Source of the DNA: Candidatus Omnitrophota bacterium
Lineage (GTDB): Bacteria > Omnitrophota > Gorgyraeia > Gygaellales > Profunditerraquicolaceae
Direction: 5' to 3'
Length of the DNA stretch: 64,000 bases
Assembly: GCA_028715415.1 (NCBI GenBank)
Contig: JAQURX010000005.1
Coordinates: 43 to 64,042 of the forward strand
The notes beneath the pieces are model-generated. The model saw nothing but the letters and a program-made list of their open reading frames with translations. It was not told where the DNA came from and did no database searches. The translations under genes and the position numbers were made by a program. Each line of letters begins with the position of its first letter. Within the stretch, counting starts at the first letter, position 1. Shown here piece after piece: positions 1 through 52,398 of the stretch.

Positions 1-1802
1 TCGCTGGTAAAATCGCGGATAATATCTATTTCAGAAAGTTTAACTTTGTATTGAACCATCTCTAAAGTAGTGTCAAGTATTGTGTTTAATTCAAGTAATT
101 CAAAATTCTCATCGCCGCGGCGGGAATATTTCAAAATTCCACGCACAACTTCCCCTCCCTGCACAACATTTGCCTGAATGCGTTCAAGGGCATGGTTTAT
201 GTCTTTAAGCATTTCTTTAACTTCGGGAGTGCATTTTGAAGTGTCTGTATTTACCAGAGTATTAATACTATCTCCTGCGATCAATGAAAGAGCGTAGAAA
301 CGGTTATTTATTTGATGTGATAATCCATCGGCCATGGTCCCGATTGTTGCCATTTTCTCTGCCTGTCCGATTTGCTCCTGCATTTCTTTTGTTTCAGCAT
401 AGAACTGCGCGTTCTCAATTGCAAGCGCTGCCTGGCTTGCAAGCACTTGGAATACATTAAGGTCGTCAATTGTAAAAATCTCTCCTGAAATTTTATCTCC
501 TAAAACAAAAAATCCCATGAATTTATCTTCCAGAAAGCTCGGGATAATTACCGAAGCGTCAAGCAGATGCATTTTTTCTTCTAATATCTTAAAAGTTACT
601 TCATTGGTGTCTTGGGCTTGGCGTTTAATTTCTTCGTAAACAAGCGGCTCGCGCTTAACCATAATCCATGAAACAAGAGTATTGTCGGAAGAAATTTTCT
701 GAATCGGCACCCTTCCTTTATCCCGGCAAACTTGCAAGACATATTCATCTGCCTGCCGGTCGTAAAGATAGGCCGAGAAATAGGAAATTTTGACGGTTTT
801 GGTCATAATGTGCGCAATTAGGTTAAGGAGTTTGTTTAGGTTGCGCACGCGAGTCATGCCGAGTGAAGCCTGTTTTAAGGTTTGCTGATAGCGTCGTTGC
901 TCTTTAAGCAGGCGGTCCTCTGCTCTTCTTTGGATGTAGATATAAAGGAACGGGCCAACAGTGGCTAAGAGGGTTAACAAGCCAAACGGCACAATCCACC
1001 ATTGTGAACCAAGCATATCAACAAGCCAGCTTTTAAGCCAAATAGTCGCTGCGAAAGGTATGCCGAGAACGAGGGTGTAAACAGCGATAAATACGCCTGC
1101 TCGGGTGATGGCTATGGAAACATCCATAAGTCTATATCTAAACATTGCATAAGCAAAAATAAAAGGATATAGTCCGATAAGAATGTTTGAATAAGGATAA
1201 ACAGGTAATCCAAATATAATATATAAGAACATTCCTTCTGGTCCTAGCCAGCCAATTACTGATCCGATTAAGAAATATTTTAGCTGATTGCTTTGGCTTC
1301 CGTTAGTACTCCCCCTGTAAAGATTGAATATTAGAAAGAAAGTATAAAAGAGGATTAAATTATAAAAAATAATATAATAAATCAGGTAAAGTGGATTAAT
1401 CTTTAGATTTAAAACAAAGAAATAAAATTGATTAAAGGAATATTCTAAAAGAATAAAATCTTTTTTAAAGAAAATTAAGTAAAGAGATAGGATAGTTAAA
1501 ATATAAACTAAAATGATTTGAAATGTTCTACGTTTTGTTTTGGTAAGTATTAGCGCGTAATGAATGAAAAAAGTGCAGGTTAATGTTACTCCTATATGTG
1601 CTATTTTAGTCCAATATAAGGCAATTTCTTTTGAATTAGTAGTTGAAAACTTGTAAGCACCTAAAGCCCAAATTGCACAAGCAACGCAAACCATACCCCA
1701 GACATTAGAAAGGCGCTTATTTTTGCCTTTTGTAAATGTGAAAATAGCAATAAAAGAATTTGTAATTAATGTGAATATACAGGACCAAGCAAATAGGTTC
1801 AT
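1..1802 (-). CDS. Sensor histidine kinase, N-terminal portion (multi-TM membrane domain + GAF-like + HisKA H-box); C-terminal ATPase lies beyond the window edge
   Basis: Manual reverse translation from ATG at 1802 gives an open frame to position 1. N-terminus is hydrophobic and helix-rich (MNLFAWSCIFTLITNSFIAIF..., IGLYPFIFAYAMF...). It is followed by a GAF-like region and the H-box IGTMADGLSHQINNRFYALS. Not in the ORF track because the stop is outside the window. Confidence 0.65.
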   Translation of the reverse strand, partial: MNLFAWSCIFTLITNSFIAIFTFTKGKNKRLSNVWGMVCVACAIWALGAYKFSTTNSKEIALYWTKIAHIGVTLTCTFFIHYALILTKTKRRTFQIILVYILTILSLYLIFFKKDFILLEYSFNQFYFFVLNLKINPLYLIYYIIFYNLILFYTFFLIFNLYRGSTNGSQSNQLKYFLIGSVIGWLGPEGMFLYIIFGLPVYPYSNILIGLYPFIFAYAMFRYRLMDVSIAITRAGVFIAVYTLVLGIPFAATIWLKSWLVDMLGSQWWIVPFGLLTLLATVGPFLYIYIQRRAEDRLLKEQRRYQQTLKQASLGMTRVRNLNKLLNLIAHIMTKTVKISYFSAYLYDRQADEYVLQVCRDKGRVPIQKISSDNTLVSWIMVKREPLVYEEIKRQAQDTNEVTFKILEEKMHLLDASVIIPSFLEDKFMGFFVLGDKISGEIFTIDDLNVFQVLASQAALAIENAQFYAETKEMQEQIGQAEKMATIGTMADGLSHQINNRFYALSLIAGDSINTLVNTDTSKCTPEVKEMLKDINHALERIQANVVQGGEVVRGILKYSRRGDENFELLELNTILDTTLEMVQYKVKLSEIDIIRDFTS

Positions 1803-1808
1803 TTTTAG

Positions 1809-3245
1809 TTATAATTTATCACTAAACGTACTTAAAATATTTTTTGCCGTAATTCTACCAGAAACAGCTACTGTTGAAATCCCTCCTTGTCCTGCCCCTC
1901 TAGTGCACCAATGACCTGCAAGATAAAGATTTTTTACTGAAGTTTTTTGCGGAATTAAATTGCCCTTAGTTTGATTTTTTGTAGAAGCCCACCCAAAAGC
2001 AGCTCCATTCCTATTTAAAGTGTATCTATGGAAAGTACAAGGAGTGGCTGTTTCAATTAAATCGATATTTTCTTTGAGGTCGTCCACTATCCTATTAGAA
2101 ATGTCTATTAGTTTGTTTGTTAATTGACCTCTTTTTTGTTTCCAAAAATTCTGATTTTCAAAAGTAGCCATTGTAAATATTTCAATAGTATTTTTTTGAG
2201 ATTTAACTAAAGACTTGTCTTTTGAAGAAGGAAAAGACACTAATAAGCCACTAATTATATTTTCTTTTAAGTTGGTTCTTAAATTCTTGTAACAATTTTC
2301 AATATTGTTTTCTGAAAAATACCAAATATTAGAGCAGTTGTTAGAGGTCTCTTTTAGGTCTTTTTTTATTCCCAAGTAGACTGCAAACACTGAATTTGAA
2401 GGCTTAAGTCTATCTACCGTTTTTCTTTCCTTAGTTTTGGTTTTAATTAATTTCTTAAAAGTTAAGGTAGCATCACAAGCAGAAACTGTTCTTTTAGAAT
2501 AAATCTTTTCTTTGGATACCAACTCTACTCCTATAGCAATGTTATCTTTAACTAAGATTTTAATGACTTCTTTTGAAAGAATAATTTCTCCCCCAAGTGA
2601 TTTAAATCTTTTTACGAATGCTTCAGTAAAATCTTGCATTCCTCCTCTTGGATAGTATCCCGGGTCTAGTATGAATTCATTAAAGAATACAATAGCGATG
2701 ATAGCAGGAATTTTACTTGGTGGTAAACCCATATTGCCTAATAAAAGCAATCCAATTGATGATTTTAAATTAATATCCTTAAAGAAATAATCAAGCAAAT
2801 CTTTTGTGCTTAAGTTTTTAGTCGCTTTAAATTGAAGAAAAATTTCTTTTTTAGAAATGAACTTAAAAAAACGTTCAATATTATTTTTTTCTTTTGGAAA
2901 ACTTTTTTTAAATTCATTAATTGTGTCAAAATAATTTTTTCTAATGTAAGTAATTGAATCAGGTAGGATTATTTTATCAGCCGGATCAAATTGATTAAAT
3001 TTTATTATATTGGTTAGATCGAGTTCTTTAATAATTTGGTTTAGCGATCCATGTTTTATCCCGCCAATATAGTGGATAGATGTGTCAAATTTATAACCTT
3101 TTCGCGTGAAAGAAGTGCAATAGCCACCTGCCATTGAGTGTTTTTCAACAATTAACACTTTCAACCCAGCTTTAGCAAGATAACACCCGCAAGTAAGGCC
3201 CCCGATTCCCGCTCCAATTATTACTACATCGTATTTGTTTTTCAT
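1809..3245 (-). CDS. FAD-dependent oxidoreductase, phytoene desaturase (CrtI)/amine-oxidase family
   Basis: N-terminal dinucleotide fold DVVIIGAGIGGLTCGCYLAKAGLKVLIVEK and C-terminal YLAGHWCTRGAGQGGISTVAVSGRITA typical of the CrtI family; 478 aa. Confidence 0.7.
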   Translation of the reverse strand: MKNKYDVVIIGAGIGGLTCGCYLAKAGLKVLIVEKHSMAGGYCTSFTRKGYKFDTSIHYIGGIKHGSLNQIIKELDLTNIIKFNQFDPADKIILPDSITYIRKNYFDTINEFKKSFPKEKNNIERFFKFISKKEIFLQFKATKNLSTKDLLDYFFKDINLKSSIGLLLLGNMGLPPSKIPAIIAIVFFNEFILDPGYYPRGGMQDFTEAFVKRFKSLGGEIILSKEVIKILVKDNIAIGVELVSKEKIYSKRTVSACDATLTFKKLIKTKTKERKTVDRLKPSNSVFAVYLGIKKDLKETSNNCSNIWYFSENNIENCYKNLRTNLKENIISGLLVSFPSSKDKSLVKSQKNTIEIFTMATFENQNFWKQKRGQLTNKLIDISNRIVDDLKENIDLIETATPCTFHRYTLNRNGAAFGWASTKNQTKGNLIPQKTSVKNLYLAGHWCTRGAGQGGISTVAVSGRITAKNILSTFSDKL

Positions 3246-3847
3246 TTTATATGTTTAACTGCTTCTATGCTATTTTTGCGAATAGAACGTTTGCCTTTTT
3301 CCGCTGGATAACCAAAGGTCAGAATTGCTATTAATTCTTTATCGGTTTTAAGTAGTTTATTAATTCCTTCTTTGCAAAATAGAGGAGTGTCAAGCCAGCA
3401 GGAGCCAATTCCACAAGATTCAGCACCAAGAATCATATTTTGGATGGCCGCAGAAATTGCGCTAAATTCAGCCTTCTTGATTATGCCTGAAAACCTTGAG
3501 TAAATTTCTTTAAATCTATTTTTCATTTTATCCATATCTCCGGAATTATATACTGCAATTGTAACAGGAGCTGACTTAATTATATTTGATGCGGAGTGAA
3601 GTAAAATATTAACTCCTGCTCCGGAATTCTTGGATTTTTTCAAAACGATTTCCGATAGTTGTTTTTTTATCGATTTATTTGTTATTACTACAAAAAACCA
3701 AGGTTGGATTCTTAGGAAGCTTGGAACTGACGGCCCCCAGATCCCCGCCTCAATAATCTTATCCAAGATTTTCTTAGGGATGGATTTGTTTTTATATTTT
3801 CTTACTGTCGCGCGCTCTTTGATAAGTTTGAGTACATCAGTTTTCAT
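3242..3847 (-). CDS. Nitroreductase-family flavoprotein
   Basis: 201 aa; ATVRKYKNKSIPKKILDKIIEAGIWGPS N-terminal nitroreductase signature; 4-nt ATGA overlap with the downstream gene suggests translational coupling. Confidence 0.65.
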   Translation of the reverse strand: MKTDVLKLIKERATVRKYKNKSIPKKILDKIIEAGIWGPSVPSFLRIQPWFFVVITNKSIKKQLSEIVLKKSKNSGAGVNILLHSASNIIKSAPVTIAVYNSGDMDKMKNRFKEIYSRFSGIIKKAEFSAISAAIQNMILGAESCGIGSCWLDTPLFCKEGINKLLKTDKELIAILTFGYPAEKGKRSIRKNSIEAVKHIK

Positions 3848-3873: not shown

Positions 3874-5133
3874 TTAAATTTTCTTAGCAAACCATTTTGT
3901 CATTGCTATTAGTGGAAGCATTGGCGGCAGGCCCGGAGCAAATGGCAATACACTGGCATCGCAGACAAAAAGATTCTTTAGTTTTGTTTCTAAGTTGTTA
4001 TCTACAACTTTTCCAATAGCCGCAGTTCCACCCGGATGCGCGCCTTTTAATTTTGTGACAAATATGTTCTTTGGGTCAACTCCGCATTCAACAAGAATTG
4101 TTTTGGCAATATCTCTTCCTTTTTTTAGTTTTCTTAGGTCGTTTTCTGTAGGGGCTTTGGATATTGTGCCATCAGGATAAACTTTTCCAATAGAATCGTC
4201 ATTAATCTTTGTCATGATTCCGATTAATTTTCTTCTTTTGAAAATGTTTAGGTAGTCTTTTGGCTCTAATCCGGAGAATAAACCGATGCAATTAGGGTCT
4301 ACAAATGGCGACAATACAAATCCTTCGGTTTTGTGGAATTTAGTACAAACTACAGACATTGATAATTCTTTTGCCTGTGTAGAATCTTTTGCAACTCCAT
4401 AAGTCATATGAAACAAATCTACAAAAAGATTATCTCCAGCTTCAATCCCTGAATTTTGTAGAATTATTGGAGTTCCTATGCCTCCTGCGGAAAGGATGAT
4501 TTTGTCAGCAAAATACTTCTTTCCATTCTTTCCTTCTACTCCAGTGGCTTTCCCGCTTTCTTCAATAATCCTTTTAACTGAGAATCTAGTAATTAAATCA
4601 ATGCCTAGGTGTTTGATTTCCTCCCAGCATTTTTTTGCCGACCATTTTATGCCAAATTTGCACCCTTCAGAGCAATGTCCGCAGTCAAGGCATTTTCCCG
4701 TAATACTAAACTTAGGCATAGGGAACATCTCATAGCCAAGTTTATTCGCAGCATCCATTATCCTGTGCGAAGTTTTACCAATTTCAAGGCCGCTATCTCT
4801 GACAAAACATTCTTTTTTCGCCTCGGCAATTTCATCTTTGAAGTCAATGCTAAGTTGGTTGTATTCTTTGTCGGTGAAATCAACCGCGTTTCCGCAGCTA
4901 ACAATGCTTGTGCCTCCAACGCCGAAAACCCTAAAAATCGTAACTCCTTGGATACTTTTTGCAAGAGCAAATTTATCATAAAAAAGCGCAGCAGGAAAAA
5001 CCGAACCCAAGTTATTAATAATCCCGCCTTTTTCTAAAAGCAATACGGTTTTATTTTTTTTAACTAATTCTTTAGCAAGCACTAATCCGCAAAGCCCGGC
5101 TCCTACAATTATATAATCATATTTTTTTTCCAT
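3874..5133 (-). CDS. Compact GMC-family FAD oxidoreductase with inserted Cys-rich (CxxCxxCxxxC) motif
   Basis: N-terminal DYIIVGAGLCGLVLAKEL...LLEKGG, the central stretch VGGTSIVSCGNAVDF, and C-terminal GAHPGGTAAIGKVVDNNLETKLKNLFVCDASVLPFAPGLPPMLPLIAM match GMC N- and C-domains. An extra CLDCGHCSEGCKFG insertion is present. Only 419 aa. Confidence 0.55.
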   Translation of the reverse strand: MEKKYDYIIVGAGLCGLVLAKELVKKNKTVLLLEKGGIINNLGSVFPAALFYDKFALAKSIQGVTIFRVFGVGGTSIVSCGNAVDFTDKEYNQLSIDFKDEIAEAKKECFVRDSGLEIGKTSHRIMDAANKLGYEMFPMPKFSITGKCLDCGHCSEGCKFGIKWSAKKCWEEIKHLGIDLITRFSVKRIIEESGKATGVEGKNGKKYFADKIILSAGGIGTPIILQNSGIEAGDNLFVDLFHMTYGVAKDSTQAKELSMSVVCTKFHKTEGFVLSPFVDPNCIGLFSGLEPKDYLNIFKRRKLIGIMTKINDDSIGKVYPDGTISKAPTENDLRKLKKGRDIAKTILVECGVDPKNIFVTKLKGAHPGGTAAIGKVVDNNLETKLKNLFVCDASVLPFAPGLPPMLPLIAMTKWFAKKI

Positions 5134-5136
5134 TTT

Positions 5137-6201
5137 TCACCTCTGTTTTCTTAGGAAGTAAGTTAGTATTCTTTCTAAGAGGCTGTTGGTGATATTTGGC
5201 ATAGTAAAGCCACAACTTTTTAGTATCGCATTTGTATCAGTAGAGTCAAGATTTATTTTGAAATTTACCGAAAGGATTGTAGCGCGTAAAATTGCCTGTT
5301 GCGTAGGGGTAAACTTATCGGCAATAAATTCTTCCAAGCTTGTAATCTTGGGTTTTTTAAAGTTTGCCAGTTTAGCTGCAGTATTAATTATTGTTTCTAT
5401 TGGAACTAAATCTGTTGGGATAGGATGGAATGTCTTGTTTTTTTCTTTTGTGGTGTTTGCTAATACGTAAATCGCGTTTGCTGTTAGGTCAATCGGCACC
5501 AAGCTTAGGCGGGCGTCTTTAATCGGCAGAGTATCAAACAATTCAATCCTGCACAGGTTAATAAATTGATAGACGTGTTTAAATTGGAATGTTTTTCCTT
5601 CTATAGAATCTCCCATGATCATAGAAGGCCTAAATATATCAACCCAAAGCCCTTTTTTACGGAATTCTACCACAATTTTCTCTGCTTCAAACTTTGTTTT
5701 TTCGTAATTTGTATCAAACCCTTGTCCGACATCCAGATCCTTTTCGGTAAATTTATTATGATAATTACCGTAAACATAAGCTGTGCTGATGTGGTTGATT
5801 TTCTTGAGTAAGCCATTTTTTGCAAAACTATCGCTTAAATCAAGTATTCTTTTGGTGCCTGTAACATTTATATTGGTAATTTCATTTATTGGGCGGTTTA
5901 AATCTGTGATTGCGGCGCTATGATATATTTCTTCAACAGAATCCCGTAATTCCTGAAGCGTTTGATTACTCAACGCCAAGTTATCTTTACCGACATCTCC
6001 TTCTAAAATAACTAAATTATCGGGTTGAAATTTAGTATCCCAGAATTTTAACACTTCTAAGATTCTATTTTGTGAGGTTTTTTCTTTTGAACTTCTGGAA
6101 AGCGCAAAAACTTTATGGTTGTTCTCTAAGAATATTTTTAAGAGGTAGGAGCCAAGCAGCCCTGTTCCACCGGTGAGAAAAATTGTTTTTTGAGAGTTCA
6201 T
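5137..6201 (-). CDS. SDR-superfamily thioester reductase (R-domain / fatty acyl reductase-like) protein
   Basis: IFLTGGTGLLGSYLL...ALSRS...HSAA...NVTGT...YEKTK pattern matches the thioester-reductase / male-sterility NAD-binding family. ATG at 6201 (MNSQK) preferred over the TTG-extended track start at 6228. Confidence 0.6.
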   Translation of the reverse strand: MNSQKTIFLTGGTGLLGSYLLKIFLENNHKVFALSRSSKEKTSQNRILEVLKFWDTKFQPDNLVILEGDVGKDNLALSNQTLQELRDSVEEIYHSAAITDLNRPINEITNINVTGTKRILDLSDSFAKNGLLKKINHISTAYVYGNYHNKFTEKDLDVGQGFDTNYEKTKFEAEKIVVEFRKKGLWVDIFRPSMIMGDSIEGKTFQFKHVYQFINLCRIELFDTLPIKDARLSLVPIDLTANAIYVLANTTKEKNKTFHPIPTDLVPIETIINTAAKLANFKKPKITSLEEFIADKFTPTQQAILRATILSVNFKINLDSTDTNAILKSCGFTMPNITNSLLERILTYFLRKQR

Positions 6202-6211
6202 GAAATCGTTT

Positions 6212-7420
6212 TTATCCCGTTTTTCCAAAGACTATGCAGCAGTTGTTGCCGCCGAAGGCAAAGGCGTTGTTGAGTGCTGTGTTAATTTTAAGTTTTCTTG
6301 CTGTGTTTGGTACGCAGTCAATGTCGCATTCAGGGTCAGGTTCAGTAAAATTGATTGTCGGAGGCAAGACTCCTTCTTTAATCGCCATGCAGCATGCAGC
6401 TGCTTCAATGGCACTCGCAGCCCCCATGCAGTGGCCAAGCATTGATTTACTTGAGCTAACAGGTAGTTTTCTTTCTCCGAAAACTTCTTTTATGGCAGTA
6501 GATTCTTCTTTGTCATTTTGAGTTGTTCCTGTGCCATGGGCATTGATATAGTCAATATCATCCGGCTTAAGCCCGGAGTCGTTTATTGCTTTCTCCATTG
6601 CTTTTCTAATCCCTCTTCTTGCCGGGATAGTCATATGATGAGCATCGCAAGATAAGCCGGCTCCGAGAATCTCCGCGTATATGGGAGCTTTTCTTTCAAT
6701 AGCTTTTTCTAAGGGCTCTAGAATAAGAATGCCTGCGCCTTCCCCCAGAAGCATCCCTTTCCTGTTCTTGTCAAATGGGGCGCAAATATCAGGCGCCATC
6801 GCGTATAATTTCTGGAATCCTTGGTATGCAATCCTTGATAGTGCCTCAGCGCCTCCCGCAATCGCTAAATCTACCTGTCCGGTTTTGATTAAATCAAAGC
6901 CATAGCTTAGGCTATAATTTCCCGCAGAACAGGCATTGGGGATTAAAAGATTAGCCCCTTTTGTTTTAAAGAAATATCCGGTGTTTCTTGCAATTGAAGG
7001 AGAGAAAATATTAAGTAGGAATTTATTTGTCAGGCTGTCAGGGTCATTTTCCAAAATCATGTGTGATGACAGGTCTATAGTATTTCCTTCAGGAATAGTT
7101 ACGCCAATAACAAATGCCGGCTCTGTTTTTCTGATTGACGGGATGGGGATTTTTGCGTCTTTTAATGCAAGTTTTGTCGCGGCAATTGAAAAAACTGAAG
7201 CTCGCCCCATAAATTTCAGCATTTGTTTGGGGACAAAATCTTCGGGATTAAAGTTTTTTACTTCTCCCCCGTTTTTGCGGGTAAATTTGGAGGTGTCAAA
7301 CAAATCAACTTTGCTTATTCCGGACTTTCCTAAGATTAAATTCTTCCAAAAATCTTCTATTCCTATCCCAATTGAGGAAACAATTCCTAATCCGGTTACC
7401 ACAACTCTTCTATTCATCAT
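6212..7420 (-). CDS. fabF: Beta-ketoacyl-ACP synthase II-like condensing enzyme (intact Cys-His-His triad)
   Basis: Motifs PNACSAGNYSL (Cys), YINAHGTGTTQND (His) and KSMLGHCMGAAS (His). Start set at the MMNRR ATGs (7420/7417), because the track's MTPLI extension lies inside a repeat element. Confidence 0.8.
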   Translation of the reverse strand: MMNRRVVVTGLGIVSSIGIGIEDFWKNLILGKSGISKVDLFDTSKFTRKNGGEVKNFNPEDFVPKQMLKFMGRASVFSIAATKLALKDAKIPIPSIRKTEPAFVIGVTIPEGNTIDLSSHMILENDPDSLTNKFLLNIFSPSIARNTGYFFKTKGANLLIPNACSAGNYSLSYGFDLIKTGQVDLAIAGGAEALSRIAYQGFQKLYAMAPDICAPFDKNRKGMLLGEGAGILILEPLEKAIERKAPIYAEILGAGLSCDAHHMTIPARRGIRKAMEKAINDSGLKPDDIDYINAHGTGTTQNDKEESTAIKEVFGERKLPVSSSKSMLGHCMGAASAIEAAACCMAIKEGVLPPTINFTEPDPECDIDCVPNTARKLKINTALNNAFAFGGNNCCIVFGKTG

Positions 7421-7429
7421 AATTAATGG

Positions 7430-7494
7430 TGTCATTCCCGCGAAAGCGGGAATCTACGCTATTTTCTGGATCTTTGCTTTCGCAGGGATGACAA
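7430..7494. repeat. Palindromic repeat unit A (hairpin H1 + inverted diverged copy H2; tgtcat...atgaca termini)
   Basis: tgtcattcccgcGAAAgcgggaatctacg is a perfect 8-bp stem with a GAAA loop. The second arm ctggatctttgcTTTCgcagggatgacaa is a degenerate inverted copy. Copies recur at 16.5 kb and 52.3 kb. Confidence 0.8.
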
Positions 7495-7503
7495 TATTCA
7501 TCC

Positions 7504-7553
7504 GTCATTCCCGCCCCTGCTTCCGCAGGGGTAAACTCCAGTGGGAATCTACG
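7504..7553. repeat. Repeat unit B (H1 stem with nested inner hairpin cccctgcTTCCgcagggg)
   Basis: gtcattcccg cccctgcttccgcagggg taaactccag tgggaatctacg; a second copy at 16549 carries compensatory changes in the inner stem. Confidence 0.8.
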
Positions 7554-7566
7554 ACATAACCTTGTT

Positions 7567-8016
7567 TTATTCTTTTGGTTTGATTCCAAAGACGATGTTA
7601 GCTTCAACGACTGTTTCGTTATCAACTAATGCGCAGGCTTTGACAATTCCGGCGTTGCCAAGGATTTTCTCACCTTTTATCTTTAAAATTAACTGATCTC
7701 CGGGCCGCACCGGCTTTAAGAATTTAGATTCAACTCTACCTAAAAAGTATGTCGGGTGTTTTTCTGCGATTTCAGGTTTAAGTGCAGCAAAAAGAAGTAT
7801 GCTGGCCTGCGCAAGCGCTTCAATGATTACAACCCCCGGCAGGATAGGATTCCCCGGAAAGTGCCCCTGAAAAAAATAATCATTCATAGTGACATTTTTT
7901 AAGCAAGTAATTTCTCTTGAAGGCGCATTTATTTCAAGGACAGAATCAACAAAAAGAAAAGGGTATTTCTGCGGCAAGATTGATTGGATTTTATTTATAT
8001 CCCAGATAGCAGGCAT
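7567..8016 (-). CDS. fabZ: 3-hydroxyacyl-ACP dehydratase FabZ-like (hot-dog fold)
   Basis: FFQGHFPGNPILPGVVIIEALAQ active-site motif; 149 aa. Confidence 0.8.
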   Translation of the reverse strand: MPAIWDINKIQSILPQKYPFLFVDSVLEINAPSREITCLKNVTMNDYFFQGHFPGNPILPGVVIIEALAQASILLFAALKPEIAEKHPTYFLGRVESKFLKPVRPGDQLILKIKGEKILGNAGIVKACALVDNETVVEANIVFGIKPKE

Positions 8017-8017
8017 A

Positions 8018-8272
8018 TTATTTTTCTAGTAATGGCTGAAGGACTTTGTAAACATCGCCAAGGCTTCTTAAAGTAGGAATTTTCTCTTCAGGCACAACTA
8101 CCTTGTATTTCTTTTCAATGCTTGCGATAATTTCAAGCGCCATCATGCTGTCAATACCTAAGTCTTCTGAAAACTTAACATTTTCTAAAAGTTCTTTTTC
8201 TTCAACTTCGGTAATTTCAGCGACTAGTTTTTTTACCTCAAGCTTGATTTCCTCAAAATTCTTTTTAGCCAT
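8018..8272 (-). CDS. acpP: Acyl carrier protein
   Basis: 84 aa, phosphopantetheine attachment motif DLGIDSMMALEI. Confidence 0.85.
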   Translation of the reverse strand: MAKKNFEEIKLEVKKLVAEITEVEEKELLENVKFSEDLGIDSMMALEIIASIEKKYKVVVPEEKIPTLRSLGDVYKVLQPLLEK

Positions 8273-8289: not shown

Positions 8290-9036
8290 TCAGATTGCCA
8301 AGCCACCGTCGATTTTAATTGCTTCGCCGGTAATGTAATTAGCTTTTTCCGATGCAAGAAAAACGCACAAGTTTGCCACTTCTTCGGCTTCGCCTAATCG
8401 TTTCACTGGTATGATTTTTAGAATTTCGGTTTTCATTTCTTCTCTCATCCCGCTTACCATATCTGTATTGATAAAGCCCGGACAGACAGCATTTACGGTA
8501 ATATTATATGCCGCTACTTCCTTTGCTAAAGCTTTTGTAAAGCCTATTATCCCTGCTTTTGAAGCGCTATAATTTGTCTGGCGCGGTAATCCGGTTATCC
8601 CGCTTACCGAGCTCATATTAATTATCTTGCCTGATTTTTGTTTCAACATTGTTGTTATGCAGGCCCGGCTCATGTTAAACGTCCCGCCGAGATTGGTTTC
8701 TAAAACATCTTTCCAGTCTTCCTGAGCCATCATTAACAATGCTTTATCTTTGGTAATACCTGCGTTATTGATGAGTATATCTATTTTTTGGAATTTTTCC
8801 ATAGTTTTTTCAATTACTTTCCGGCATTGCTCAAGGTCTCTGACATCTGTTTGTAAGCTGAGGCATTCAATATTTAATCCTTCAATTTCTTTTTTAAGTT
8901 TTTCCGCTTCCTCTATATTTTTATTATAAGTAAATACTACACTTGCTCCTGCTTTAGCAAGCGCAACACAGCAAGCCCTGCCGATTCCGCGAGAGCCGCC
9001 GGTAACAATCGCAATCTTTCCTTTTAATTCATTCAT
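8290..9036 (-). CDS. fabG: 3-oxoacyl-ACP reductase (SDR, FabG-like)
   Basis: KGKIAIVTGGSRGIGRA, NNAG and SxnY..K motifs. Start moved to MNELKGK (9036) to remove a 56-nt overlap of the track ORF with the upstream gene. Confidence 0.8.
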   Translation of the reverse strand: MNELKGKIAIVTGGSRGIGRACCVALAKAGASVVFTYNKNIEEAEKLKKEIEGLNIECLSLQTDVRDLEQCRKVIEKTMEKFQKIDILINNAGITKDKALLMMAQEDWKDVLETNLGGTFNMSRACITTMLKQKSGKIINMSSVSGITGLPRQTNYSASKAGIIGFTKALAKEVAAYNITVNAVCPGFINTDMVSGMREEMKTEILKIIPVKRLGEAEEVANLCVFLASEKANYITGEAIKIDGGLAI

Positions 9037-9037
9037 T

Positions 9038-10276
9038 TTAATTTTCCGTAAATTTTTCGAGGATACAGGCGCTATTGTATCCTCCTGGGCCAAAAGAAGT
9101 AATTAATGCAATCTTTACGTCTTTTTTCTCCCCTTTGTTAGGAACACAGTTGATTTCGCACTCCGGGTCTTTTTCTTCATAGTTTATTGTCGGTGGAATA
9201 ATTCCACGCTGCATTGCTCCTATGCAAGAAGCAACCTGAAGAGCACCTGAAGCTGCAAAAGTTTCACCAATCATGGACTTAATTGAACTAACTGGGATGT
9301 CTCTTAATTCTTTTCCAAAGATTTTATTAAGGACTTTTACCTCTGTTTTATCCAAATCCTGAGTTGAATTAGCGCAGCTTGAGATATAGTCTATATCTTT
9401 AATGTCGATTCCCGCTTCTTTAATTGCTTGAATTATTGCGATCTCAAGGCCTTCTCCTTGCGGGTTAATCGTTCCCATCTTACTCGCGTCAAAATAATTA
9501 CAAACACTTTTAATTTTAGCGTAAATATTAGCGCCTCGTTCCCTTGCCCTATCCTTTTCTTCTAGAGAAAAAACACAGGCAGCTTCTCCTAGTATAGGGC
9601 CATTTCTTTTTTTGTCAAAGGGGCAGCTTAATTCTTTTCCGTTTAACCCGGCCATGTAGCCAAGTTTTTGTAAGCCCATAAATAATGATGAGGTTAAAGT
9701 TTCGACACCTGCAGAGAAAATAATTTCTGCTTTGTTTGTTTTCAGGGCGTCTATGGAGTATTTCAACGCGGCAAGGCCCGAACAAAACCCCGTGCTCACT
9801 GTTGCATTAAAGCCTTGTATATTAAAACGGATTGAAACTTGAGAAGAAGCTGCGTTCATTACTGTTGAGGGGAAAAGCGCCGGGCTTGCGAATTCTATGC
9901 CTTCGGTAAATACTTCTTTGTCAAATTCCGTAATAGACCATAAATGCGGAAAGGTTGTCCCTGTGCAAACGCCGAATTTATCCGTATTCTCATCTGTTAT
10001 TTCAATTTTAGCATCGTCAATGGCAAGTTTTGCCGCTGATATTAAAAATAATGCGCTTCTATCTAAATTCCTCAAACCCTTAGCGCCTAAGATTTCTTTT
10101 GGATCAAAGTTTTTAGCTTCGCAGGCAGATTTTACTTTAAATTCATCTGTGTTGAAGAAAGAAATCTGTGTTGATGAATTTAAGCCGTTTTCAAGAGCCT
10201 GCCAGAACTCAGCCTTACCGATTCCGTTCGGGGCAATTACCCCAATTCCTGTAATAACAGTTTCAAAGTTTTTCAT
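9038..10276 (-). CDS. Ketosynthase-like protein with Cys retained but both catalytic His replaced (C-C-E; chain-length-factor / KS0-like)
   Basis: Full thiolase/KAS fold (MKNFETVITGIGVIAPNGIG..., VSTGFCSGLAALKY) but YISSCANST replaces YINAHGTGT and KSMIGETFAASG replaces KSMxGHxxGAAG. Confidence 0.7.
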   Translation of the reverse strand: MKNFETVITGIGVIAPNGIGKAEFWQALENGLNSSTQISFFNTDEFKVKSACEAKNFDPKEILGAKGLRNLDRSALFLISAAKLAIDDAKIEITDENTDKFGVCTGTTFPHLWSITEFDKEVFTEGIEFASPALFPSTVMNAASSQVSIRFNIQGFNATVSTGFCSGLAALKYSIDALKTNKAEIIFSAGVETLTSSLFMGLQKLGYMAGLNGKELSCPFDKKRNGPILGEAACVFSLEEKDRARERGANIYAKIKSVCNYFDASKMGTINPQGEGLEIAIIQAIKEAGIDIKDIDYISSCANSTQDLDKTEVKVLNKIFGKELRDIPVSSIKSMIGETFAASGALQVASCIGAMQRGIIPPTINYEEKDPECEINCVPNKGEKKDVKIALITSFGPGGYNSACILEKFTEN

Positions 10277-10279
10277 AGT

Positions 10280-11299
10280 TTATCTTACCGGTGCATGCGG
10301 CGCCCATACCTCAAAGCCATGTTGGACCGCAATATCAGAAATTTCTTCCATTTTGTCAGAACACGAACTTTCTCCTAAATAATGATGGAATGATTTCTCT
10401 TCAAAAGTTAAAAGCATTGTTTCTGCCATAGAGGCATTAATCACGCCTTTGGGAAGCCCTAAGTCAATATTAATATCTTCCGGAAACGGAACTTTTACTA
10501 AGGTGCCGCTAATTACCGGAAGCCCTTTGCAGATGTTATTTTCTGATTTTGAATTTAAAGTAGCATCGCAAAAGATCGGCTTTTTTTCTAATTCGGAAAC
10601 CATTTTTTCTAAATTCACTTTTGAAAAATCCAGATTAATGATGATATCAGCCTCTTTAATAGCTTTATTTATATCTGGTTCTACGCAAATCATGGTATTG
10701 TTATTGTGTAAAATTGTTTCTTCTATTCTTTGTAATATTTTAGGATCATCTCCTTGCAGGATAATTTTGTTTATGCAGCTTGAAAATCGTTCCGAGCAAA
10801 GTTTGCCTATTGAGCAGTCCGCACCGATTATGACAAGGGTTAAATTATTTGTTTTTAAGCCTCTTTCTCTGCAGGTCCTATAAATAGTTTCATAAATTGC
10901 CCAAGCGGAATAATATTTTCCGTTTGTTACTGGAAGAGGAACCTTTTCTTCAATTTTTTGATGATTTTTTTCTGCCAGGTATCCTGCATATCCGCTCAAG
11001 CCTAAAAGGCTTGCTTTAAGCTGCTTTGCAATGTTACCTGCTGAGTAAATCGTGTTTAGAACGAATTCTTCATCAAGGTTTGGAGCCTCGTTGTCTAATA
11101 ATGGGCTAATGATAACATGGCCTTGTATTTCTTTTCCTTGAGTTGATTGGATACGTTTTAGATGAATTACTTTGCAAGGATAACTTCCTTTGGAGAACAT
11201 TTTCGCAAAAAAACCGGGCATGCGTTTAAATGCAGGCCAGAATCCTTTAGCTTCATCCAGATTTGTCGGGTTTACTACAAAAGCAAAGCTTTTTATCAT
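10280..11299 (-). CDS. Rossmann-fold protein resembling long-chain acyl-ACP reductase (AAR) / shikimate-DH-like family
   Basis: By recollection, similar to cyanobacterial AAR. N-terminal GKEIQGHVIISPLLDNE compares to AAR GKVIHGRYIESCFLPE. NAD fold LVIIGADCSIGKLCSERF. C-terminal ASMAETMLLTFEEKSF...EEISDIAVQHGFEV compares to AAR ACFAEAMLLEFEGW...EAIGEASVRHGFQP. Confidence 0.45.
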   Translation of the reverse strand: MIKSFAFVVNPTNLDEAKGFWPAFKRMPGFFAKMFSKGSYPCKVIHLKRIQSTQGKEIQGHVIISPLLDNEAPNLDEEFVLNTIYSAGNIAKQLKASLLGLSGYAGYLAEKNHQKIEEKVPLPVTNGKYYSAWAIYETIYRTCRERGLKTNNLTLVIIGADCSIGKLCSERFSSCINKIILQGDDPKILQRIEETILHNNNTMICVEPDINKAIKEADIIINLDFSKVNLEKMVSELEKKPIFCDATLNSKSENNICKGLPVISGTLVKVPFPEDINIDLGLPKGVINASMAETMLLTFEEKSFHHYLGESSCSDKMEEISDIAVQHGFEVWAPHAPVR

Positions 11300-11690: not shown

Positions 11691-11921
11691 TTAATCTATA
11701 ATTGCTAAAGTGTCTCCAACGTTAACAGTATCTCCTTCCTGAAACATGATATCGGAGATAGTTCCGGTAGCTGGACTGGGAAGATTGAATGTAGCTTTAT
11801 CGGTTGCAAATTCAACAAGGTCGTCTTTTTCGCTTACCTTGTCTCCTAATTTAAAAAACCAGTAGGAAAGGGTTGCTTTTGTGATTCCTTCTCCTAATTC
11901 CGGAAGAACTACTTTAACCAT
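11691..11921 (-). CDS. Standalone lipoyl (biotinyl/lipoyl attachment) domain protein, E2-type
   Basis: About 76 aa with LPELGEGITKATL...EFATDKATFNLPSPATGTI lipoyl-lysine motif; ATG at 11921 has a strong AGGGAGGA Shine-Dalgarno 6 nt upstream. Confidence 0.7.
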   Translation of the reverse strand: MVKVVLPELGEGITKATLSYWFFKLGDKVSEKDDLVEFATDKATFNLPSPATGTISDIMFQEGDTVNVGDTLAIID

Positions 11922-11973
11922 GGTATCCTCCCTGGGCACCAGCCCGCCCTGTTTCATCCGATAGAAACAGGGG

Positions 11974-12717
11974 TCATAGTATTGGGGGTAAGCGTCTTCT
12001 TAGCCCCAGTTTATTAATTGATGTTGTTGTTAAACTTGCAGTTGAAAAAACCGCATTAAATTCCGGAAAAATCTCACAGTTGGGTTCTTCAGGCAGCGTA
12101 TTGTTAAATTTAGCAGCAATTTTATCTTTTAATTCTTTGATTTGCATGGAAGCTCCTAATTCAGCTTCTAAACAAGTCATTTTAATATCCATTCCACACG
12201 GCCTGATTAAATTAAAGTTTTCTAAATCAAATTTCTTAATATTGATACTAAGGCCGTGGAAACTTATCCAGTTTTTAATTGATATCCCGATTGAGGCGAT
12301 TTTCTTATCTTGAACCCATACGCCGGTTAATCCGGGACGCCTTACTCCGTTAATTCCCATTTCACAAAGTATATCCATGATAGTTTCTTCAAGGTATCTT
12401 AAGAAAAGGTGAATGTCTTTTTTGAAATATTTAAGGCTGAATATGGGATAAACTGTCAGCTGCCCGGGGCCATGATAGGTTATATCTCCTCCGCGCGTTG
12501 ATTCAATAACTTGAATTTTTTTTGCTTTTACTTCTTCCGGAGGAGCTACTAAATTTTGCCTGGAGCCTGCCCTGCCGATTGTAATCACCGGATTATGCTG
12601 GCAAAAAATAAGTGCAAGCGGATAATCTTCATTTTTTACAGCTGTGTGGGTTTGTGTTTGAAAGGCTAAAGCCTTATTGTAGTCAATCAAGCCTAAATCA
12701 AAGATTTTAACTTGCAT
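11974..12717 (-). CDS. lipB: Lipoyl(octanoyl) transferase LipB
   Basis: IFCQHNPVITIGRAG...GGDITYHGPGQLTVYPI...KIASIGISIKNWISFHG. Confidence 0.8.
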   Translation of the reverse strand: MQVKIFDLGLIDYNKALAFQTQTHTAVKNEDYPLALIFCQHNPVITIGRAGSRQNLVAPPEEVKAKKIQVIESTRGGDITYHGPGQLTVYPIFSLKYFKKDIHLFLRYLEETIMDILCEMGINGVRRPGLTGVWVQDKKIASIGISIKNWISFHGLSINIKKFDLENFNLIRPCGMDIKMTCLEAELGASMQIKELKDKIAAKFNNTLPEEPNCEIFPEFNAVFSTASLTTTSINKLGLRRRLPPIL

Positions 12718-12719
12718 TT

Positions 12720-14009
12720 TTATTTGATTGCGTCGTGGATTGCTTCTGACACTGTCGGGTGTGCAAAGATTATATTCTTTAAATTTGCTGTTGTGAAATG
12801 ATTAGAAATTGCTAGTGCTAAAATTCCAATTAGCTCTGTTGAGCGAGGCCCGATTAATGAGCTTCCTAAGATTTCTTTTGATTGCTTATGGGAGATAATC
12901 TTTATAAAGCCTTCTGTTTCATCTAAGATTCGCGCCATGCCGTTTCCAAGGAAATCAAATCTATCAATATTAATTTCAATCTTTTTCTCTTTGGCTTCAG
13001 CTTCTTTTAGCCCTACGCTTGCAATTTCAGGATCTGTAAAAATACAATTAGGCACAGTCGTGTTATCCGCTTTTTGCAAATTTCCTTCGGTAACAGCGTT
13101 TGAAGCGGCGAGAATCCCTTGATAAGAAGCATAGTGGGCCAACATGATTTTTCCTGTGCAATCTCCGCAAGCAAAAACTTTCGGATTACTTGTCTGTAGG
13201 TAGTCATTAATAATAACTTTACCTTTTTGCATTTTGATTCCCAATTCTTCAAGTCCAAGGCCGTAGGTATCAGGAGTTCTGCCTACGCAAACCAAAATTT
13301 TACTAATTCCTTTAAGGTCCAAATCTTTAGCATCAGTATTAGTACAGACTTTAATCCCCTTTTTCTTAAAGATCGTTTCTAACTTTTTGGCAATCTCAGC
13401 GTCTTCTTCGGGTAACAGAAAAGGCATCTTTTCAACTAGCGTGACTTTTACTCCTAAATTGTTAAATAAACTGGCGAATTCACAGCCGATTACTCCTCCT
13501 CCGATAATTAAGAGTGATGCTGGAATCTCGTTTAGATTAAGCAAATCGTCGCTTGAAAGCACATTCTTACCGTCAAATTTGAAAATCGGCAATTCCATCG
13601 GTTTTGATCCGGTAGCAATGATTAATTTCTTAGTTTCAATTATCTTTTCATTTACTTTAATTCTTTCAGGGGATAATAATTGAGCCTCCCCATTTAATAA
13701 ATCAATCCCCTGGAGCATAAATTGCATTCCTTGGGTGAGCTGTTGGACTATTTTATTTTTTCTTTCCTGGATTTTTGCGAAATTAAAGCTACAGTTGGTT
13801 AAATCTACTCCGAATATGGAAGATTTTTTGGCAAGAGAATATATTTTTGCGCTTTGGATTAAAGCTTTAGTGGGAATGCAGCCGCAGTTAAGGCAGGTGC
13901 CTCCTATTTTTGATTTTTCAATGAGGCATACTTTAGCCCCAAGTTTTTTTGCTTTGATGCTTGCGTTAAACCCAGCCCATCCTGCGCCGATTACAACAAT
14001 GTCATACAT
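12720..14009 (-). CDS. lpdA: Dihydrolipoyl dehydrogenase-family pyridine nucleotide-disulfide oxidoreductase (E3)
   Basis: YDIVVIGAGWAGFNAS, redox-active GGTCLNCGCIPTKAL, C-terminal HPTVSE dimer-interface motif. Confidence 0.75.
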   Translation of the reverse strand: MYDIVVIGAGWAGFNASIKAKKLGAKVCLIEKSKIGGTCLNCGCIPTKALIQSAKIYSLAKKSSIFGVDLTNCSFNFAKIQERKNKIVQQLTQGMQFMLQGIDLLNGEAQLLSPERIKVNEKIIETKKLIIATGSKPMELPIFKFDGKNVLSSDDLLNLNEIPASLLIIGGGVIGCEFASLFNNLGVKVTLVEKMPFLLPEEDAEIAKKLETIFKKKGIKVCTNTDAKDLDLKGISKILVCVGRTPDTYGLGLEELGIKMQKGKVIINDYLQTSNPKVFACGDCTGKIMLAHYASYQGILAASNAVTEGNLQKADNTTVPNCIFTDPEIASVGLKEAEAKEKKIEINIDRFDFLGNGMARILDETEGFIKIISHKQSKEILGSSLIGPRSTELIGILALAISNHFTTANLKNIIFAHPTVSEAIHDAIK

Positions 14010-14016
14010 TATAAAT

Positions 14017-14937
14017 TTAAAGAGGTAATTGTGCGGTTAATTTACGAATACTCTCAGCTGAAGCGATAAATTTGTCTTTTTCTTCTTTATTAAGATCAAG
14101 CTCAATAACTTTTTCAATCCCGTCTTTTCCGATCCTGCAGGGAACTCCAAGGCAGACGTCTTTAATGCCATACTCTCCATTCAAGCTGGCACAAACGCCA
14201 ATAGTCCGTTTTTCATTCTTAACTATTGTTTTTACGATATCAGCGATTGCAGCAGATGGAGCATAATATGCGCTACCCGATCCCAAATTAGAAACAATCT
14301 CCAAGCCTCTGCCTATTGTCCGATTGATTAAAGTTTCTAGCTTAGCTTTATCTACAAATTCGTCTAACGCAATGCCATTAATTTTTGTAAATCTTGCTAA
14401 AGGAAGCATTGCTTCTCCATGGCTTCCAATAACGCAAGCCTCAACGCTTGTTTGAGGAACTTTTAATTCTAAAGCAATGAGGTTTGCAAAACGCGCGGAA
14501 TCAAGGCCGATCCCCATACCGAAAACTTTATTATTCTTAAATCCGGTTTGCTTTAAAGCAAAAAAAGTCATTAAATCCAAAGGATTGGTAACTACAATTA
14601 GTATCGCCTCTTTTGCCAGATTTTTAATATTAATTGAAACATCTTTGATGATCTGGGCATTTTTAGCCAGGAGCTCTTCTCTGGTCATTCCGGGCTTACG
14701 TGCAAGGCCGGCAGTCATAACGACAATGTCAGAGTCTTTTATCTGCGTAATGTCATCACTTCCTGTGATATTGTAGTTTTGTTTTAAAATCGGGCGGGCA
14801 TCTTCTAAGTCAAGCGCTTTTCCGTGAGCTAAGCCTTTAAGGATATCAACGATTAAAATATCGCCTACACCCTCTTGAGCTAAGCGCATAGCGGTTGTGC
14901 TTCCCACATTCCCAGCACCAATAATACTGATTTTCAT
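14017..14937 (-). CDS. mdh: Malate dehydrogenase (LDH-like family, Arg at the substrate-specificity position)
   Basis: [16 protein letters not shown]...[14 protein letters not shown]...[11 protein letters not shown]. Confidence 0.8.
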
Positions 14938-16025
14938 AGTTTTTCTTTAATTTTTTTGATAATAGCATCAGCCATTTCTTGAGTGCCGACGCTGCCTGGA
15001 TCATCTCTGTGCGGTTTTAAATCATAAGTAACATCTTTACCTTCTTTTAAAACATCTTTTATTGCGTTTTCAAGTGTATCAGCAGCTTTATTCTCTTTTA
15101 AATATCTTAACATCAATACGCCTGATAAAATCATCGCAGTAGGATTAACTTTATTAAGCCCTGCGTATTTTGGAGCCGAGCCATGAACTGCTTCAAAAAC
15201 TGCTACATCATCCCCTATGTTTGCTCCCGGGGCAATTCCTAATCCTCCGATTAACCCTGCGCAAAGGTCGGAAAGAATATCCCCATAAAGGTTTGGAAGG
15301 ACCAGTACATCGTAATCATTTGGTTTCTGCACTAATTGCATGGCCATATTATCAACCAGTGCTTCTTGAAATTCTATCTTTCCTTCGTATTTTTTTGCAA
15401 CTTCCCGGGCAACTTTAAGGAATAAACCATCAGTAAATTTCATAATATTCGCTTTCTGAATTACTGTAATTTTTTTTCTATTGTTCTCTAATGCGTATTC
15501 AAAAGCGAACTTTACGATTCTTTCTGTGGCAAATCTTGAGATAGGCTTAATGGAAATACCTGATCCGGGGCGGATTTTTTTCTTGCTAAAAGTTTCTATC
15601 TTTTCTATAAGTTCTTTGGTTTCAGGTTTGCCTTCTTCAAATTCAATCCCCGCATATAAATCTTCACTGTTCTCTCTTACAATTAAAAGGTTGATATCTT
15701 TAAAATTGCTTTTTACTCCGATGTAAGTTTTTGCCGGCCGGACGCAGGCATAAAGATCCAAAGCTTGGCGTATGGCAACATTGACTGAGCGAAAACCTGT
15801 GCCGATAGGAGTTGTAATCGGGCCTTTAAGAGCAACTTTATTTTCTTTAACCGAATCAAGTGTTGCTTGCGGTAGGAGTTCGCCAGTTTTTTCTAAGGCA
15901 GCTTGCCCAGCTAAAGCTTCAACCCACTCTATTTTTACATTTGTTGCATCAATGCACCTTTTCGCAGCAAGGGCAACTTCTGGGCCGATACCATCACCGG
16001 GAATCAGGGTAACTTTATGATTCAT
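14934..16025 (-). CDS. Beta-decarboxylating dehydrogenase, isocitrate/homoisocitrate dehydrogenase-like (NAD-IDH type)
   Basis: [11 protein letters not shown]...[33 protein letters not shown] matches IDH rather than the LeuB signature; 363 aa. Confidence 0.7.
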
Positions 16026-16547: not shown

Positions 16548-16633
16548 TGTCATTCCCGCCCCTGTTTCCACAGGGGTAAACTCCAGCGGGAATCTATGTT
16601 ACATCCTGGATCCCTGCTTTCGCAGGGATGACA
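16548..16633. repeat. Repeat locus: unit B' + hairpin H2 between pilT and leuD
   Basis: tgtcattcccg cccctgtttccacagggg taaactccag cgggaatctatg ... ctggatccctgcTTTCgcagggatgaca. The inner stem shows compensatory g>t/c>a relative to the 7504 copy. Confidence 0.8.
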
Positions 16634-52334: not shown

Positions 52335-52398
52335 TGTCATTCCCGTGGAAACGGGAATCTACGCTATTTCCTGGATACCTGCTTTCGCAGGTATGACA
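52335..52398. repeat. Palindromic repeat unit A'' (H1' + H2'') directly upstream of the pdxA start
   Basis: tgtcattcccgTggaaAcgggaatctacgctatttcctggatAcctgctttcgcaggTatgaca. Both stems carry compensatory substitutions relative to the 7430 copy. Confidence 0.8.

Follow-up and report, generated by a model that had tools for sequence, protein, structure and literature searches.

Gene content of the locus

We analysed a stretch of 64,000 nucleotides from the genome of a Candidatus Omnitrophota bacterium (contig JAQURX010000005.1), referred to below at its full length as the window, and focused on two ketosynthase (KS) paralogues that are encoded within one series of minus-strand genes. The order of these genes is: an acyl-ACP-reductase-like (AAR-like) protein, KSmut, FabG, an acyl carrier protein (ACP), FabZ, KS2, a thioester reductase, a GMC-family oxidoreductase, a nitroreductase and a CrtI-like flavoprotein. 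KS2 (6212-7420, minus strand, within an open reading frame (ORF) that reaches 7435) is an active ketosynthase of the amxFabF2 type and the presumed partner of KSmut; its Cys/His/Lys/His set and gate Phe are all in place, in agreement with the initial annotation of this DNA, which had described the paralogue at 6212-7420 as intact. KSmut (9038-10276, minus strand) has the FabF fold and no catalytic triad, since the corresponding positions are occupied by Phe164, Cys301, Lys333, Glu338 and Pro397. We propose that KSmut is a catalytically inert FabF paralogue that most likely constitutes the chain-length-factor (CLF)-like subunit of a heterodimer with KS2.

The KSmut ORF represents a real gene, as judged from the ORF call and its translation. 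The product of 412 amino acids is 100% identical to a protein deposited at NCBI for a Candidatus Omnitrophica metagenome-assembled genome, contains both the N-terminal and the C-terminal ketoacyl-synthase domain of Pfam and has more than 120 homologues at the cluster level (54-72% identity). It is a stand-alone protein, i.e. there is no modular polyketide synthase (PKS) polypeptide around it. An AlphaFold2 model, made from an alignment of 40 homologues, reached a pLDDT of 94.6 and a pTM of 0.94, and superimposes on FabF crystal structures (Foldseek) with TM-scores of 0.95-0.96 and a root-mean-square deviation of 1.5-1.8 Å. Public databases label KSmut as a 'beta-ketoacyl-ACP synthase family protein' and its close homologues as '3-oxoacyl-[acyl-carrier-protein] synthase II'. 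On TIGR03150, the NCBIfam equivalog model for fabF, the protein scores 320.7 bits, which is below the cutoff of 493.75, and this score and the absence of the triad led us to reject an identification as FabF proper. Judging from its residues, KSmut would be unable to condense or to decarboxylate alone, so that pathway reconstructions in which it is counted as a second FabF would be wrong.

Residues at the former active site

The register of KSmut was established with HMMER by aligning it to Brocadia amxFabF2, to amxFabFmut of the same genus and to B. subtilis FabF, all taken from the PDB, and further with MAFFT and with hmmalign, and residue frequencies in the family were counted over the 120 closest homologues. 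The methods agree that both catalytic histidines have been replaced, as had been claimed initially: the first by Cys301 (SSCANST; codon 9374-9376, minus strand), a residue that is Cys in 112 of the 120 homologues, and the second by Glu338 (GETFAAS), which is invariant. A check by proper alignment for histidines at the catalytic positions thus yielded none. The catalytic Lys333 is kept, in KSmut as in all 120 homologues; it lies together with Glu338 in the motif KSMIGE (9263-9280, minus strand). The Phe of the GFGG motif, which forms the gate and belongs to the oxyanion site, has become Pro397 (9086-9088, minus strand), and Pro is likewise found in 115 of the 120.

The nucleophile position itself required a correction. 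The initial annotation read a 'Cys-Cys-Glu' triad, with the nucleophile Cys kept in FCSGLAA. Our alignments pair the TGFCSG of KSmut with NACSAG, TACAAG and TACATG without a gap, which puts Phe164 at the nucleophile position and Cys165 at +1 (codons TTT-TGT, 9782-9787, minus strand; Phe164 at 9785-9787 and Cys165 at 9782-9784). The register is anchored on both sides without insertions or deletions: upstream a G-x-N ends seven residues before the nucleophile position in both KSmut and KS2, and downstream the two proteins have in common a Tyr at +9, an Asp at +12, a Lys-Thr at +15/+16 and a Glu at +28. The earlier register was therefore off by one residue; of the proposed triad, Cys301 and Glu338 stand and the first Cys does not.

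Within the family, position 164 is mostly aromatic (Tyr in 101 homologues, Phe in 16 and Cys in 2), and position 165 holds Thr in 103 homologues and Cys in 2, with Ser, Pro, Ala, Val or Asn in other relatives. As Cys165 is not conserved, no family-wide function can rest on it. Judged from these residues, the Phe/Cys/Glu site has no acyl-accepting nucleophile and no His pair for malonyl decarboxylation, so that the suggested combination 'acylatable but not decarboxylating' has to be replaced by neither. There are relatives with a different constellation: in two of them (P0024 and P0105 in our collection) the nucleophile position is truly occupied by Cys (STGCTSS and STGCASS), next to Cys/Glu at the His positions, and this nucleophile Cys is a single-nucleotide change away from Tyr or Phe.

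Kinship with the anammox pair amxFabF2/amxFabFmut

The best match of KSmut in the PDB is 9s5h_C, i.e. amxFabFmut of Brocadia fulgida (297 bits, 39% identity); 9s5h_B ranked second with 250 bits, and other scores were 223 bits for B. subtilis FabF and 127 bits for 1tqy_B. KS2 in turn is matched best by 9s5h_B, which is amxFabF2 (432 bits, 49.5% identity), with Iga11 (6kxd_A, 345 bits) as the next. A search with chain C of 9S5H returned proteins of Brocadia, Jettenia and Scalindua at 65-91% identity, which identifies the entry as an anammox protein. We take bioRxiv 10.64898/2026.05.19.726425 to be the paper on 9S5H and 9S5I; the PDB code is absent from its main text.

According to that paper, amxFabF2 (triad intact) and amxFabFmut (triad lost), both encoded in the anammox Cluster I, are each inactive alone, but co-purify and form a heterodimer, for which crystal structures are given and which resembles a ketosynthase/chain-length-factor pair. 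The heterodimer decarboxylates malonyl-ACP, makes acetoacetyl-ACP and favours C6-C8 probes; amxFabFmut by itself does not react with alpha-bromo-acyl-ACP probes (bioRxiv 10.64898/2026.05.19.726425). Phe135 and Val139 of amxFabFmut line the substrate tunnel, and the effects of their mutagenesis are described (same source). By sequence comparison, the same two residues, which in amxFabFmut line the acyl tunnel of the partner, are present in KSmut as Phe135 and Val139 (FPSTV; 9860-9874, minus strand), are invariant or nearly so in the KSmut family and were found in all anammox amxFabFmut clusters examined.

The phylogenetic placement that the initial annotation had put forward as a check gives the same picture. 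We collected KS-like domains exhaustively with HMMER from representatives at 50% identity and inferred a neighbour-joining tree of 146 domains with 200 bootstraps. The KSmut family is monophyletic in 178/200 bootstraps, and KSmut groups with amxFabFmut on a split that is free of any Cys/His/His ketosynthase in 198/200. KS2 falls together with amxFabF2 in 195/200, in a group that also includes the KS domains at the N-termini of the fusion proteins P0149 and P0136. In these fusions the KS of the amxFabF2 clade is joined to a C-terminal domain that belongs to the CLF-like clade of KSmut, which by the Rosetta-stone argument supports a physical KS-CLF pairing in these clades. Most of the retrieved KS-like domains, stand-alone or fused, are variable at the Cys and first-His positions, keep the Lys and have Glu for the second His; at the first-His position the wider clade shows Cys, Ser, Asn, Ala and Gly.

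A scan of the GTDB species genomes yielded at least 560 stretches that encode relatives, of which the best 80 were surveyed. Besides Omnitrophota and Nitrospirota/Thermodesulfovibrionia, these represent Endomicrobiales, Syntrophales and other groups. Among them the core KSmut-(FabG)-ACP-FabZ-KS2 is found repeatedly, and the genes for the thioester reductase, the GMC oxidoreductase, the nitroreductase, the CrtI-like flavoprotein and the AAR-like protein are variable. A Cys/His/His ketosynthase is present in 36 of the 42 related loci whose flanks are long enough. Some loci carry yet another paralogue: a third KS is encoded between KS2 and the CrtI-like gene in L001 (14012-15316; 434 amino acids, about 29% identical to KS2; the L numbers denote related loci) and in L029, L035, L038, L042 and L049. 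The window contains no such third paralogue.

Functional interpretation of KSmut

As far as sequence comparison reaches, KSmut has every testable defining feature of an amxFabFmut-type subunit, and it probably works like the chain-length factor of a type II PKS. The initial suggestion that it forms a heterodimer with the neighbouring KS is supported by homology (the 9S5H pair), by synteny (the 36 loci mentioned above) and by the natural KS-CLF fusions. The close packing of KSmut with its neighbours, 3 nt from the AAR-like gene and 1 nt from FabG, speaks for the proposed role as well. The accompanying statement that KSmut differs from classical chain-length factors has to be turned around, since it appears as a CLF-like inert subunit with an aromatic residue where the CLFs of aromatic PKSs have Gln. 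By analogy with the solved and assayed Brocadia/Kuenenia pair, KSmut and KS2 would form an obligate heterodimer in which all chemistry is done by KS2, i.e. decarboxylative priming from malonyl-ACP, followed by Claisen condensation on the ACP that the cluster itself encodes. KSmut would stabilise KS2 and supply part of the surface on which the ACP docks, and its Phe135 and Val139 would close the acyl tunnel, such that short to medium chains of about C6-C8 result. More tentatively, the gene content suggests that FabG and FabZ process the beta-keto group, that the AAR-like and thioester-reductase enzymes might release the chain reductively as an aldehyde or alcohol, and that the CrtI-like, GMC and nitroreductase flavoproteins might then tailor the released chain. 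If the heterodimer is real, FabF-derived KS/CLF pairs would be widespread in the fatty-acid-like pathways of uncultured bacteria.

A number of observations weigh against this interpretation. Scalindua amxFabFmut crystallises as a homodimer (bioRxiv 10.64898/2026.05.19.726425), which makes a homodimeric state physically possible. Six of the 42 well-flanked loci contain a KSmut homologue and no Cys/His/His ketosynthase within 10 kb (L039, L052, L064, L071, L056 and L008). The polar residues of the former active site (Cys301, Asn303, Ser304, Asp309, Lys333 and Glu338) are strongly conserved, and such a pocket could, going by the residues, retain a binding or catalytic role. A Phe-Cys dipeptide at 164-165 is shared by roughly one in four of the 85 species-level loci. 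With respect to chain length and product, elongation past acetoacetyl-ACP by the anammox pair was not observed in vitro (bioRxiv 10.64898/2026.05.19.726425), and our statements on both are extrapolations from that pair. Listed with these points is a comparison that speaks neither way: when net charges on the helix-loop-helix and the interacting helix were counted in 58 KSmut/KS2 pairs, the published asymmetry did not emerge, and it was missed even in the Brocadia subunits that served as a positive control. As a separate observation, some of the six loci without the active ketosynthase do encode FabG and FabZ, and in L039, L052, L064 and L071 genes resembling those of riboflavin synthesis, identified by eye from the translations, lie upstream.

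The conserved polar residues, the six loci and the Scalindua homodimers (bioRxiv 10.64898/2026.05.19.726425) would also fit a KSmut that is independent of KS2, either as a pseudo-enzyme that forms homodimers and has acyl-ACP or some other molecule as its ligand, or as an enzyme that uses Cys301, Lys333 and Glu338 for a different reaction; a distinct catalytic role for such paralogues was in fact proposed by Rattray et al. in 2009 (PMC2649909). We nevertheless consider such independence quite unlikely, in view of the co-occurrence and shared phylogenetic pattern with the amxFabF2-type KS, the existence of fusions, and the variation of the residue at the first-His position in the wider clade. 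Moreover, none of the assays showed activity of the anammox subunits in isolation, and the homodimer has a disordered helix-loop-helix (bioRxiv 10.64898/2026.05.19.726425).

Another possibility, and the one implied by the initial comparison with KS0 domains, is that KSmut is acylated on a retained Cys, does not decarboxylate malonyl-ACP and acts as a station that holds or transfers acyl groups beside the active KS. A Cys does adjoin the nucleophile position and another one, Cys301, lies in the pocket, P0024 and P0105 combine a true nucleophile Cys with Cys/Glu, and the Phe-Cys dipeptide recurs in the broader family; yet the gap-free alignments, anchored on two sides, assign the nucleophile position to Phe164, the adjacent position is Thr in most homologues and something other than Cys in further relatives, the gate/oxyanion Phe is a Pro and amxFabFmut alone did not react with the acyl-ACP probes (bioRxiv 10.64898/2026.05.19.726425). 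KS0 domains are moreover parts of modular trans-AT PKSs and KSmut is a stand-alone protein of the FabF type, all of which makes this possibility very improbable. There is still less to be said for KSmut as a classical type II PKS CLF (KS-beta) that itself decarboxylates malonyl-ACP to prime the synthase, an idea that we regard as hardly credible. The architecture of a KS with an inactive paralogue is the same, and the heterodimeric anammox homologue does decarboxylate malonyl-ACP (bioRxiv 10.64898/2026.05.19.726425), but the position of the Gln is occupied by Phe in KSmut and by Tyr in most relatives, both His are lost, the match to 1tqy_B (127 bits) is far below those to FabFs (195-223 bits) and amxFabFmut (297 bits), and the cluster encodes no cyclase or aromatase. 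The CLF-like, inert subunit of a KS2 heterodimer thus remains our preferred interpretation of KSmut.

The other genes of the cluster and their surroundings

The gene directly upstream of KSmut encodes an AAR-like protein of 339 amino acids (10280-11299, minus strand), distant kin of cyanobacterial AAR and of the N-terminal domain of PigE, for which a search of Pfam gave no match. Its stop lies 3 nt ahead of the KSmut start, and with this 3-nt gap the gene is translationally coupled to KSmut. About a dozen related loci encode homologues, the position of which varies. A scan for promoters and terminators gave matches to consensus only; one of these, TTGACA/TATATT at 11599-11571 in the gap that precedes the AAR-like gene, would be compatible with a separate transcription unit but does not count as evidence of one. 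In three Omnitrophota loci, a radical S-adenosylmethionine (SAM) protein of about 590 amino acids with the motif HRGCCGxCSFC is encoded just upstream of KSmut (L007 7413-9269, L008 606-2474 and L011 7690-9528), which has no relation to the B12 radical-SAM enzyme of anammox bacteria.

Downstream of KSmut follow, all on the minus strand, the genes of the fatty-acid-like core. FabG, a 3-oxoacyl-ACP reductase (8290-9036; 314 bits on TIGR01830, above the cutoff), has a mechanical ORF that extends to 9093, and its likely start Met is at 9036, 1 nt after the KSmut stop. The dedicated ACP (8018-8272) has amxACP as its best PDB matches (7auf_A, 7qv0_D and 9s5i_E), and the FabZ-type dehydratase (7567-8016) has amxFabZ (7qv0_A, 132 bits). 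FabZ and KS2 are separated by an unusual gap of 131 nt that is filled by two copies of a palindromic intergenic repeat, TAGATTCCC...GGGAATGA, which occurs in forms of 25 nt and 47 nt. The window has four copies, all on the minus strand (7432-7456, 7505-7551, 16550-16596 and 52337-52361), where none is expected by chance; in L001 and L003, FabZ and KS2 overlap. As the ATG at 7435 falls within one of these copies, a start of KS2 at 7420 or 7417 is more likely.

Beyond KS2, the minus strand encodes a thioester-reductase-type short-chain dehydrogenase/reductase (NAD_binding_4; 5137-6228), identified with Pfam and NCBIfam and recurring in related loci, a GMC-family FAD oxidoreductase (3874-5133), likewise identified with Pfam and NCBIfam and present in related loci, a nitroreductase-family flavoprotein (3242-3847), and a flavoprotein of the CrtI/phytoene-desaturase family (1809-3245) that shares 33% identity, from end to end, with the phytoene desaturase (PDH) of the Brocadia Cluster I.

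The window starts within a gene for a sensor histidine kinase of the 7TM-GAF type (1-1802, minus strand), of which the N-terminal 600 amino acids are included, 6 nt downstream of the CrtI-like gene. The protein is 48% identical to a HisKA_7TM/GAF/HATPase_c kinase in L003, and 42 related loci from different phyla encode members of the family downstream of the cluster. The kinase may regulate the cluster in connection with lipids or the membrane. Rfam and repeat scans of region 1-1800 were empty.

A possible connection with lipoate metabolism

Directly upstream of the cluster, also on the minus strand, lie lpd (12720-14009), lipB (11974-12717) and a gene for a stand-alone lipoyl-domain protein of 88 amino acids with the motif TDKA (11691-11957). 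The block of lpd, lipB and the lipoyl-domain gene takes the same position in about ten loci of Omnitrophota, where it is usually preceded by mdh and icd. The loci in question (L006, L009, L047, L058, L059, L067, L072, L073 and L074), which include Candidatus Velamenicoccus archaeovorus, have KSmut proteins of only 46-71% identity. In the Brocadiaceae sequence CP064969.1 (L086), a gene for an lpd-like pyridine-nucleotide disulfide oxidoreductase lies directly downstream of the B12 radical-SAM gene of Cluster I (14405-15839); it is called as two ORFs, which are 41% and 36% identical to the Lpd of the window. The amxFabF2 of CP064969.1 is likewise called in two pieces (8724-9746 and 9764-9949).

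LipB uses octanoyl-ACP. The block upstream, the lpd-like gene of Brocadia and the C6-C8 preference of the anammox enzymes therefore leave room for a housekeeping role, or a role in octanoyl-ACP supply and lipoylation, of the genes discussed here. In such a scheme KSmut/KS2, FabG, ACP and FabZ would not belong to secondary metabolism but would be a FabH-independent housekeeping synthase of fatty acids or of octanoyl-ACP in Omnitrophota, i.e. a CLF-capped counterpart of the mitochondrial fatty acid synthase (FAS), that would prime itself by decarboxylation of malonyl-ACP and feed LipB. It would explain the lpd, lipB and lipoyl-carrier genes upstream in about ten genomes as well as the lpd-like gene at the Brocadia Cluster I, and it would imply that the 'ladderane cluster' is built around an old and widespread FAS-like lipid module, with the B12 radical-SAM enzyme as the only part specific for ladderanes. 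We consider it unlikely, though not negligible, as an account of the cluster. A search of the literature on fatty-acid biosynthesis in Omnitrophota found nothing on whether a second, canonical type II FAS exists there.

Comparison with known systems

The gene set of the anammox ladderane Cluster I (ACP, FabZ, FabF2, FabFmut and a phytoene-desaturase-like gene) has a complete series of counterparts in the window, i.e. five of the six gene types of Cluster I, the sixth being the B12 radical-SAM gene. The order differs (KSmut-FabG-ACP-FabZ-KS2 in the window versus ACP-FabZ-FabF2-FabFmut-PDH-rSAM in Brocadia, where rSAM is the radical-SAM gene), and the cluster of the window extends beyond Cluster I with FabG, two reductases, a GMC oxidoreductase and a nitroreductase. 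With the Brocadia B12 radical-SAM enzyme as the query, tblastn found no counterpart in the window and one weak hit in the 85 related loci, which lies off-strand at a distance of 4.5 kb, and a scan for CxxxCxxC returned only sporadic, unrelated radical-SAM genes. Given the absence of this enzyme, a ladderane product is not expected, and to classify the locus as a ladderane cluster would be a mistake. To our knowledge, the Omnitrophota are not a phylum that makes ladderanes; these lipids have been reported only from anammox Planctomycetota (bioRxiv 10.64898/2026.05.19.726425; PMC9902471).

Clear counterparts of the four FAS-like proteins of Cluster I and of the CrtI-like flavoprotein thus exist in Omnitrophota, Nitrospirota and other phyla outside the anammox bacteria, but none of the B12 radical-SAM enzyme. 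The existence of such counterparts without the radical-SAM gene weakens the claim that only ladderane producers have the cluster, and points to the radical-SAM step as the chemistry that is specific for ladderanes. Surveys based on antiSMASH had hinted at this, in that 'ladderane' clusters in Omnitrophota and other phyla were already reported, without interpretation (PMC9902471), and the synteny of such clusters outside anammox bacteria was noted in 2009 by Rattray et al. (PMC2649909). In consequence of these earlier reports, the kind of protein that KSmut represents is not new.

At the level of the protein, KSmut shares its fold with canonical FabF (KAS II) at about 30% identity, but differs from it in the loss of the triad and of the gate residue and in a score below the fabF equivalog cutoff. 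The CLFs of type II PKSs, like the actinorhodin KS-beta (1TQY chain B) and the ishigamide Iga12, are inactive KS paralogues as well, which form a heterodimer with an active KS and shape the tunnel for the acyl or polyketide chain. The CLFs of aromatic PKSs have Gln at the position of the nucleophile Cys, in contrast to the Phe164 of KSmut and the Tyr or Phe that is found in 117 of the 120 homologues. The similarity is also low, with 127 bits to the actinorhodin CLF versus 195-223 to FabFs and 297 to amxFabFmut, and membership of the aromatic-PKS CLFs was rejected on these two grounds. KS0 domains, which are embedded in the modular megasynthases of trans-AT PKSs, retain the nucleophile Cys. Like KSmut, they have lost a catalytic His and have no condensation activity; unlike them, KSmut is a stand-alone FabF-type protein with Phe at the nucleophile position and Pro at the gate, and the proposed resemblance did not hold. 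The KS0-like, acylatable reading was rejected, as it arose from the one-residue register error and as Cys165 is not conserved.

Closer likenesses are found among the anammox proteins. For two Kuenenia paralogues, Rattray et al. (2009) tabulated Phe163/Asn298/Lys328/Glu333 (Kuste2805) and Val163/Asn298/Lys328/Glu333 (Kuste3606) (PMC2649909). In a comparison by that table only, Kuste2805 is like KSmut in having Phe at Cys163, a kept Lys328 and Glu at His333, and unlike it in having Asn rather than Cys at His298, in keeping the gate Phe and in belonging to a different Kuenenia cluster. The amxFabFmut of Brocadia fulgida (9S5H/9S5I chain C) and Kuenenia (KustE3606) resembles KSmut in its context, since KSmut is likewise encoded with a KS of the amxFabF2 type, an amxACP-like ACP, an amxFabZ-like FabZ and a CrtI-like flavoprotein. 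KSmut differs from the amxFabFmut proteins at the nucleophile position, which is Phe in KSmut and Tyr in most Omnitrophota as opposed to Val, Thr or Ile, and at the gate, which is Pro as opposed to Arg or Asp. It agrees with them in the kept catalytic Lys, in the Glu at the second His and in the identical tunnel residues Phe135 and Val139, and the Scalindua-type amxFabFmut shows exactly the pair of His-to-Cys and His-to-Glu replacements of KSmut. KSmut is therefore a protein of a kind already known from anammox amxFabFmut.

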